A stretch of 1,247 bases of DNA from Escherichia coli (GTDB lineage Bacteria > Pseudomonadota > Gammaproteobacteria > Enterobacterales > Enterobacteriaceae), in NCBI RefSeq assembly GCF_003334335.1, contig NZ_QOWQ01000116.1. One strand, 5' to 3'. Below, piece after piece: positions 1 to 1,247 of the stretch. The translations under genes and the position numbers were made by a program. Each line of letters opens with the position of its first letter. Positions within the stretch are counted from its first letter, which is position 1. The notes under the pieces are model-generated. The model was not told the DNA's origin. It worked only from the letters and a program-made list of their open reading frames with translations, and did not search any database.

Positions 1-39
1 TGATCCTACCCACGTAATATGGACACAGGCCTAAGCGAG
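1..39. repeat. Right terminal inverted repeat (IRR) of IS3, complete, outer terminus at position 1
   Basis: TGATCCTACCCACGTAATATGGACACAGGCCTAAGCGAGG is an imperfect inverted match to the reverse complement of the other window end (shared blocks GGACAC and CTAAG-GAG). It lies immediately beyond the orfB stop codon (TAG, 31-33 on the minus strand). The ~39 bp length is from memory of IS3, not measured here. Confidence 0.8.
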
Positions 40-896
40 GTTCTTGTTTTCAAATTGTTCCGGACTGAGGCCGCCACACCAACTGTGCCGCCGCCACCGA
101 TTGTAATCACATTCGATATAATTAAACACCGTTGCCCGCATTATTTCCCGGCTGATAAAGTGTTCTCCATGGATACATTCCACTTTCAGCGAATGAAAGA
201 AGCTTTCCACGCAGGCATTATCGTAGCAGCAACCTTTTGCGCTCATACTTCCACGCAGATTATGCCGCTTCAGTTGCGCCTGATAATCTGCTGAACAGTA
301 CTGGCCTCCACGGTCCGTGTGAACGATAACGTTCCGGGCCTCTTACGCCGCCACAGCGCCATCTGCAGGGCATCGCAGGCCAGTTGCGCCGTCATGCGTG
401 GCGACATTGACCAGCCAATAACGGCACGTGACCACAGGTCAATGACCACTGCCAGATACAGCCAGCCTTCATCTGTACGTAAGTACGTGATGTCTCCTGC
501 CCACTTCTGGTTCGGGCCACTGGCGTAAAAATCCTGCTCCAACAGATTTTCTGACACAGGCAGGCCGTGTGCGCGGTAGCTGACCGGGCTGAACTTCCGG
601 GAGGCCTTTGCCCTCAGTCCCTGACGGCGCAGGCTTGCCGCCACGGTTTTTACGTTAAAGGGGTAACCCTGAGCACGCAGTTCATCCGTCAGGCGTGGGG
701 CACCGTAACGCTGTTTTGACCGGGTAAAAGCCGCGAGGACAACGCTGTCGCAGTGTTGGCGGAACTGCTGACGCGTGCTTATCCTTGTCCGCCGCTGACA
801 CCACGTATACCAGCCGCTGCGGGCCACCCGGAGCACGCGGCACATTGCTTTGATGCTGAACTCAGCCTGATGTTTTTCAATAAAGACATACTTCAT
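31..896 (-). pseudogene. insF: IS3 OrfB (InsF-like DDE transposase catalytic domain), disrupted by a 1-bp frameshift at about 334-338
   Basis: The N-terminal part is ORF 270..896 (homology runs through ...ALWRRKRP, then 21 out-of-frame residues and a stop). The C-terminal part continues in another frame from 342 down to the TAG at 31-33 ([38 protein letters not shown]...ENKNLA; the ORF track shows only the Met-initiated part, 31..246). The frame change lies between Pro (336-338) and Arg (334-336). With one extra base the reading frame would be 867 nt, giving the canonical 288 aa. DDE residues: D at 492-494 (WAGDITY), D at 313-315 (HTDRGG), E at 205-207 (CVESFF). Confidence 0.85.
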
Positions 897-932
897 TTCA
901 GGCGCTTCGCGAAGTATGTCGCGGCCTTTTGG
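885..932 (-). promoter_or_regulatory. Programmed -1 ribosomal frameshift region: A-AAG slippery motif plus downstream RNA stem enclosing the orfA stop and orfB start
   Basis: The minus-strand mRNA reads CUC CAA AAG GCC in the orfA frame (slippery A-AAG at 926-929). Five nt downstream begins a perfect 10-bp inverted repeat (plus-strand 885-894 gacatacttc and 911-920 gaagtatgtc) with a 16-nt loop containing the overlapping ATGA. IS3 is known to make an OrfAB fusion by -1 frameshifting at an A-AAG motif stimulated by downstream structure. Confidence 0.6.
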
Positions 933-1192
933 AGGATAGCCAGCTCTTCATCCCGTTCTGCCAGCTGGCGTTTGAGACGTGCAATCTCGGTAGACATCTC
1001 CAGTTCACGTTCAGAAGACGTCTGCTGATTTTGCTGTTTACTGCGCCAGTTGTAGAGCTGTGATTCATACAGGCTGAGTTCACGGGCTGCGGCAGTAACA
1101 CCGATGCGTTCAGCAAGCTTCAGGGCTTCACTGCGAAATTCAGGCGAATGCTGTTTACGGGGTTTTTTACTGGTTGATACTGTTTTTGTCAT
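893..1192 (-). CDS. insE: IS3 OrfA (InsE-like), 99 aa transposase N-terminal/regulatory DNA-binding protein
   Basis: ATG at 1190-1192 (minus) is preceded by GAGG (1201-1204) with an 8-nt spacer. The product [99 protein letters not shown] has a helix-turn-helix-like segment ([25 protein letters not shown]) and a C-terminal leucine heptad (L-x6-L-x6-L) typical of IS3-family OrfA. The TGA stop at 893-895 overlaps the orfB ATG (ATGA). The ORF track's 102-aa version starts at a GTG at 1199-1201, which overlaps the Shine-Dalgarno sequence, so the ATG is the more likely start. Confidence 0.9.
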
Positions 1193-1200
1193 GTGAGTCA

Positions 1201-1204
1201 CCTC
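1201..1204 (-). promoter_or_regulatory. Shine-Dalgarno sequence for orfA
   Basis: GAGG on the minus strand, 8 nt upstream of the orfA ATG at 1192. Confidence 0.55.
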
Positions 1205-1212
1205 TGACTGAG

Positions 1213-1238
1213 AGTTTACTCACTTAGCCGCGTGTCCA
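1213..1238 (-). promoter_or_regulatory. Candidate orfA promoter within or next to IRL (weak)
   Basis: Minus-strand TGGACA (1233-1238; 5/6 match to TTGACA) and TAAACT (1213-1218; TAnnnT) are separated by only 14 nt, which is suboptimal. An alternative -35 with 17-nt spacing (TAGTGG) is a poor match. Position is right for orfA transcription but the sequence support is weak. Confidence 0.3.
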
Positions 1239-1247
1239 CTATTGCTG
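1219..1247. repeat. Left terminal inverted repeat (IRL) of IS3, partial; outermost ~10 bp fall outside the window
   Basis: The reverse complement of 1219..1247 (CAGCAATAGTGGACACGCGGCTAAGTGAG) is an imperfect match to IRR bases 11-39. The expected terminal TGATCTTACC is not present because the window ends. The inner boundary is approximate. Confidence 0.75.

Follow-up and report, generated by a model that had tools for sequence, protein, structure and literature searches.

The window analysed here, a stretch of 1247 nt, raises the question of why an insertion sequence should stand alone as a piece of assembled DNA, with nothing of the host on either side, one end a few bases short and its transposase gene out of frame. 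We addressed this by fixing the exact limits of the element, by following its one internal difference and the bases at its ends through public genomes and assemblies, and by asking how an assembly graph treats copies that differ at such positions.

The window is a copy of IS3 that stops 10 bp before its left end

In megablast searches of 5,426 complete E. coli genomes, only one chromosome (NZ_CP024155.1, strain 14EC047) matched the window at 100% along its full 1247 nt; thousands of other copies matched at 99.9%, all annotated as 'IS3-like element IS3 family transposase'. Near-total identity over 1247 nt means that the resemblance to IS3 is not due to chance. The window is one copy of E. coli IS3 (IS3 family, IS3 group), an ordinary element; its genes lie on the minus strand and it reads IS3 from the right end.

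The boundaries were set by aligning the window to two complete E. coli chromosomes, flanks included. Base 1, which a preliminary description had taken as the terminus of the right inverted repeat (IRR), proved to be exactly that: in 14EC047 the host ompN sequence (...GGTGTA) directly adjoins the first bases of the element (TGATCC), and the window begins with the IS3 right inverted repeat, TGATCCTACCC.... At the other end the same description had estimated that about 10 bp separate the window from the terminus of the left inverted repeat (IRL), and the shortfall is exactly 10 bp, since the window closes with ...CCACTATTGCTG and full copies go on with GGTAAGATCA, then host DNA. Its statement that host flank is missing from both ends also agrees with the alignments to complete chromosomes and with the length of the source record, 1247 nt, of which the window is apparently the whole. 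The lengths add up: canonical IS3 is 1258 bp, from which 10 bp at the IRL end and 1 bp for an internal deletion are to be subtracted to give 1247. Pairwise alignment showed this deletion to be the single internal difference from canonical IS3. The features of the window are as follows.

1..39, no strand: IRR, complete; host DNA adjoins base 1 in complete genomes, and 28/39 positions match the IRL
31..246, minus strand: 3' portion of orfB, a 71-aa ORF from an internal Met (ORF list; NF033516)
270..896, minus strand: 5' portion of orfB, with a shortened 208-aa product (ORF list; NF033516)
336..338, no strand: run of three G (G3) where canonical IS3 has four (G4), CCCC to CCC on the coding strand (pairwise alignment)
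885..935, minus strand: programmed -1 frameshift signal, intact; CCUCCA-AAAG-GCCGC at 935-921, with A_AAG at 929-926
893..1192, minus strand: orfA, intact, 99 aa; ATG at 1192, alternative GTG at 1201 (ORF list)
1219..1247, no strand: IRL without its terminal 10 bp (GGTAAGATCA on the plus strand), so that 29 of 39 bp are present

The match between IRL and IRR, 28 of 39 positions for the full repeats, is 19 of 29 for the part of the IRL that is present in the window. IS3-family elements are expected to have imperfect terminal inverted repeats of the form 5'-TG...CA-3'; in the window the IRR begins with TG at base 1, and the ...CA end falls outside the window. Target duplications were read around identical or near-identical IS3 copies elsewhere, not at the window itself, and here the 3 bp that had been expected for IS3 were found repeatedly, as GTA, AGG, ATG, TGT, TAG, CAT, ACC, TAA and AAT.

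A single-base deletion splits orfB and leaves orfA and the frameshift signal intact

All three minus-strand ORFs fall on one model, NCBIfam NF033516 (transpos_IS3). OrfA occupies profile positions 1-87, the 208-aa piece positions 90-273 (199 bits, where the cutoff is 160) and the 71-aa piece positions 305-369 (E=7e-24). OrfA carries Pfam HTH_Tnp_1, scored on the identical product at other loci, and the 208-aa piece, likewise scored on an identical product, carries HTH_21 and the first part of the rve/DDE domain.

The layout is that of the IS3 family, in which orfA and orfB overlap in phases 0 and -1 and a slippery motif is followed by downstream RNA structure. In the window orfA overlaps the start of orfB (896) as ATGA, and its CCUCCA-AAAG-GCCGC is the very sequence that PMC4066793 quotes for the IS3 frameshift window. 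Downstream of A_AAG is a perfect 10-bp stem, 920-911 paired with 894-885, which is the first stem of the IS3 pseudoknot. Folding of the frameshift region recovers this known stem with a z-score of only -1.4, and the structure is taken from the literature. An Rfam scan of the whole window at E up to 1 returned no match, the IS3 frameshift pseudoknot included, and a promoter and terminator scan of the window gave two weak internal promoter-like sites and otherwise nothing informative.

The deletion at 336-338 destroys the frame after OrfB residue 187, just before the HTDRGGQY motif, and turns the 288-aa orfB into the 208-aa and 71-aa pieces. The first of these keeps the first catalytic Asp (WAGDITY), after which come 21 out-of-frame residues and a stop; the second holds the CVESFF segment with the Glu of the DDE triad. 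One continuous DDE (rve) orfB is thus absent, the first Asp being parted from the second (HTDRG) and from the Glu. Compared with the 1258-bp IS3 of E. coli, the window has 99.9-100% nucleotide identity and the same IRR, inner IRL, orfA, ATGA overlap, A_AAG motif and pseudoknot stem, but its IRL is short of the terminal 10 bp, as a result of where the contig ends, and its C4-run deletion places the HTDRG Asp and the DDE Glu out of frame. As judged from its reading frames, the window copy cannot make an active transposase. It is an inactivated IS3 copy, neither a new variant nor a member of a different family.

The deletion allele is very rare and occurs in different insertions

When the site was queried with 61 nt, G3 was the best-matching allele for 2 of 4,250 records. 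With a 35-nt query that is unable to seed on G4, the allele was located at exactly 2 places in the 5,426 complete E. coli genomes, that is, at 2 of about 12,700 IS3 places. The carriers, with one copy each, are 14EC047, which has 4 IS3 places, and LR883012.1, which has 10; the 14EC047 copy, an ordinary insertion, lies in ompN and is flanked by a GTA duplication. The 35-nt deletion-specific query was not found in the plasmid and phage collections, and an exact 40-nt pattern spanning the deletion gave 0 matches in each of viral_contigs, genome_contigs and metagenome_contigs, so that these three do not contain the source contig.

In the assemblies index the exact 208-aa product was present on 15 contigs, as against 43,477 blocks for the intact 288-aa OrfB, and two of the public contigs carrying it are shorter than 2 kb. 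The 15 deletion-bearing contigs represent different insertions, with different flanks and duplications and with IS3 backgrounds of 0-7 mismatches, and among them are L012, from a JGI metagenome and identical to the window throughout (100%), and L014, from Logan. At least some occurrences of the deletion are thus genuine. Either it recurs, by slippage in the C4 run, or it has been carried to new sites, by movement of defective copies in trans.

A purely technical origin, as a homopolymer error of long reads, was also considered and is unsupported as a general cause, since the allele is also found in L012 and L014, which are presumed to be short-read assemblies. Error is still possible for individual assemblies that carry G3.

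The same 1-bp deletion in orfB was seen at no fewer than nine insertion sites, each with its own 3-bp duplication (L003-L012).

IS3 commonly ends contigs in public assemblies

By megablast, IS3 is present in 4,686 of the 5,426 complete E. coli genomes and is multi-copy in most E. coli, the number of places per genome having a median of 3 and reaching 18, and multi-copy IS elements are known to complicate short-read assembly (PMC4558774). We sampled public contigs that contain the exact 32-mer of window positions 1216-1247, the left end of IS3, of which 130 were listed. A true contig end lies inside IS3 in 83 of these 130, the contig reading out through the IRL into host DNA. The depths to which they penetrate the element cluster at assembler k values, with 42 cases at 54-55 nt and others at 77-79 and 125-127. 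A complete internal IS3 was found in only 12 of the 130 listed contigs, and an IS3-only contig was found in none of them. In the assemblies collection, the longest contig carrying intact OrfB was shorter than 2 kb, hardly longer than the element, for 19,760 of 43,477 blocks (45%). Taken with the 83 contigs that end inside the element, this makes a stand-alone contig the commonest setting of IS3 in public short-read data.

In these respects the window resembles the collapsed-repeat contigs of multi-copy IS elements, the problem addressed by ISMapper and similar tools: it consists of the repeat alone and ends where copies diverge. It is unlike them in that one of its ends lies 10 bp inside the repeat and not at the boundary.

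The missing 10 bp begin at a G/T polymorphism

Among the 130 listed contigs, the last 10 bp of IS3 read GGTAAGATCA in all insertions but one. The exception reads TGTAAGATCA, a change of G to T at what would be position 1248 of the window, and is the sole variant in the last 10 bp in that sample. This T allele at IRL position 10 (would-be 1248; 1249 of canonical IS3) was located at 79 places, in 69 of the complete E. coli genomes. Some of the copies that carry it are intact and full-length and lie at several sites, each bounded by its own 3-bp duplication (strains S1, 81 and KFu022), and therefore the T-variant end is evidently still competent for transposition. It is also found in a conserved copy with a 44-bp internal deletion. 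T and G ends occur side by side in single genomes, with one T end among six in CFSAN061761, one among four in NCTC86 and one among six in CUVET21-37. The T-type copies of E. coli S1, strain 81, KFu022 and CFSAN061761 match the window to its last base and diverge at the next; unlike the window, which ends before the polymorphic base, they carry C1059T and are free of the orfB deletion.

In strain S1 only T-type ends were seen (3 of 3). The T allele, noted in L153, L154, L155 at 1646, L152, L059 and L126, was linked with C1059T in the copy examined.

The behaviour of such copies in assembly was followed in a toy de Bruijn graph, built from real IS3 copies at k = 31, 55 and 127, with the following outcomes.

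Two identical copies: the unitig reaches the IS terminus plus any flank bases that are common by chance
Two copies differing only at would-be 1248: the unitig ends exactly at 1247
Single copy: no break

So near the boundary, the flanks already differ within k bases of the variant; the paths never rejoin to form a bubble, and the common path stops just before the differing base. Both ends of the window are points at which IS3 copies diverge, the IS terminus on the left and the base before the G/T site on the right. From this coincidence of position, we infer that the G/T site is most likely the cause of the shortfall in this sample.

An IS3-like relic of about 330 bp was considered as another cause of the 10-bp shortfall and rejected. 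It is identical to IS3 through GGTAAGATCA over its last 62 nt, and would accordingly break a contig near 1197+k, not at 1247.

The window is best read as a collapsed repeat node

We consider that the window is a stand-alone contig derived from a collapsed repeat node of a short-read assembly graph with at least two IS3 copies, a reading to which we assign a probability of about 0.7. The preliminary description had proposed such a collapse, and the indirect evidence agrees with it: the several IS3 copies of most E. coli, the public contigs that break in the element, the many blocks with intact orfB on contigs below 2 kb alone, and the polymorphism met just beyond the right end. The graph-based short-read source with two or more copies is a part of this reading that we infer, as is any assignment of the deletion to a particular copy or copies. 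The node would hold only sequence that is common to at least two IS3 copies in the sample. Its left end would fall at the IS terminus, beyond which each copy runs into other host DNA, and its right end would fall 10 bp inside the element because they differ at the next base, either through the G/T difference at IRL position 10 or through some other copy-specific difference. In the element itself the transposase gene orfB is inactivated by the deletion in the C4 run just upstream of the second catalytic Asp, with orfA, the -1 signal and the inverted repeats intact.

Collapse could also have taken place across the strains of a mixed sample, a metagenome or mixed culture in which a single IS3 lies at different sites in co-existing strains or is missing from some of them. 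Many metagenome contigs among those listed do end k-deep in IS3, and the JGI metagenome contig L012 shows that a deletion-bearing copy identical to the window can come from such material. However, in metagenome contigs of the sample the interior of IS3 is usually broken up where copies differ internally, at depths of 279-402 nt, and an uninterrupted node of 1247 nt fits a clonal isolate better. We regard a mixed sample as an unlikely source, with some residual weight.

Alternatively, some pipeline step might have excised or trimmed the window from a longer contig with a single IS3 copy, and the record would then be silent on copy number. Consistent with such an origin, the allele in 14EC047, the sole complete genome to match at 100%, belongs to a single unremarkable ompN insertion flanked by a GTA duplication. 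The source record, however, is itself 1247 nt long, and cuts that fall exactly at the terminal base of the IS and just before a known polymorphic base form the pattern of a graph node and not of an arbitrary window; moreover, it is on contigs shorter than 2 kb that IS3 orfB is most often met in public assemblies. An excerpt is for these reasons improbable.

A contig assembled on its own from abundant extrachromosomal transposition intermediates, excised in linear or circular form, is very improbable: transposition in the IS3 family proceeds by way of figure-of-eight and minicircle intermediates (PMC3299598, PMC3219604), and the contig is free of host DNA, but its transposase gene is broken, the IRL-spacer-IRR junction through which a circle would assemble is absent, 10 bp of the IRL are missing, and such intermediates are rare relative to chromosomal copies.

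An unbroken contig constrains the allele that it can carry

The collapsed-node reading has a consequence for the deletion. When one G3 copy and one G4 copy were placed in the toy graph (S3), the unitig was split at the G run. A mixture of the two alleles would thus break the contig, so that a collapsed contig with G3 requires either that G3 is dominant or that it survived the popping of a bubble. Given how rare G3 is, its mixing with intact copies would either interrupt the contig at the G run or produce a bubble that is popped, usually towards the intact allele. The G3 run in the unbroken window would then be the dominant or only allele of the source, an erroneous call, or, if the genome has two copies, the allele that happened to be kept when a bubble was popped. 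Popping would usually favour the intact allele; chance survival of G3 in a two-copy genome is nevertheless plausible.

It had been suggested that the sequence may be a consensus of several copies, and this has to be amended. A graph assembler emits one path and no average, and the contig represents one allele of a possibly mixed set.

The requirement for a dominant G3 in an unbroken contig, together with the presence of the same deletion at nine or more sites with their own duplications, hints at the more far-reaching possibility that most or all IS3 copies of the source are transposase-dead, a non-autonomous element having been multiplied by trans-mobilisation, through another IS3-type transposase, or by gene conversion. 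We consider this doubtful at best. Recurrent slippage in the C4 run, or chance bubble popping in a two-copy genome, would explain the same facts more simply.

Implications for reading short IS contigs

The element, its frameshift signal, its target duplication and its behaviour in assembly are all already known, and what the analysis usefully adds is where precisely the window begins and ends, how rare its allele is, and a boundary SNP as the explanation of the missing 10 bp. Caution is needed in using the contig, which carries no insertion site, copy number or host context, and its frameshift can be assigned neither to a particular copy nor to all copies. More generally, a collapsed repeat contig is cut short at any SNP that lies less than about k bases from the boundary of the repeat. 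Where an IS contig ends a few bases short of the true terminus, a boundary SNP may be the explanation, and the contig should not be read as a truncated element.

Other IS3 copies and relatives

The relic of about 330 bp mentioned above (L079:505-840) is an internally deleted IS3-like sequence in which IS3 positions 32-125 are joined to 1021-1258, with 88-89% identity overall and the last 62 nt identical. It lies at one conserved chromosomal site (flank CAACACTTTAAA) in 1,688 of the 5,426 complete genomes, and further copies were seen in L049, L054, L064, L069, L076, L083, L095, L098, L118 and others. This relic would itself fragment IS3 contigs at k of 61 or less.

Within orfB a 10-nt direct repeat, TTCCACGCAG, occurs twice, at window positions 205-214 and 249-258, 44 nt apart. 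A conserved IS3 copy of 1214 bp (flank CTGTCACCCTGG; L152:442-1655, L059 and L126) lacks exactly the 44 bp between the two TTCCACGCAG repeats, a loss that looks like a slippage or recombination deletion.

The widely shared IS3 copy at the dgcT / ycdU site (L002:1471-2770, L155) is bounded by TTT and GTG, with no matching 3-bp duplication, and adjoins a truncated ACP S-malonyltransferase gene. This arrangement suggests an IS-adjacent deletion or recombination between two copies.

Short contigs ending k-deep in E. coli IS3 were also encountered in MAGs assigned to Nanosynbacter, Lachnospiraceae, Collinsella, Bacteroidales and Flavobacterium psychrophilum, all of them species representatives (L022, L023, L026, L027, L030 and L031). 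The IS3 contigs in these non-enterobacterial MAGs are probably mis-binned enterobacterial DNA.

Finally, a relative of IS3 in Erwinia sp. JUb26 (L028:7453-8694) is 80% identical overall, yet has the exact IRL-proximal 32-mer and the terminal GGTAAGATCA. Conservation is thus far stronger at the end that the transposase binds than in the remainder of the element.
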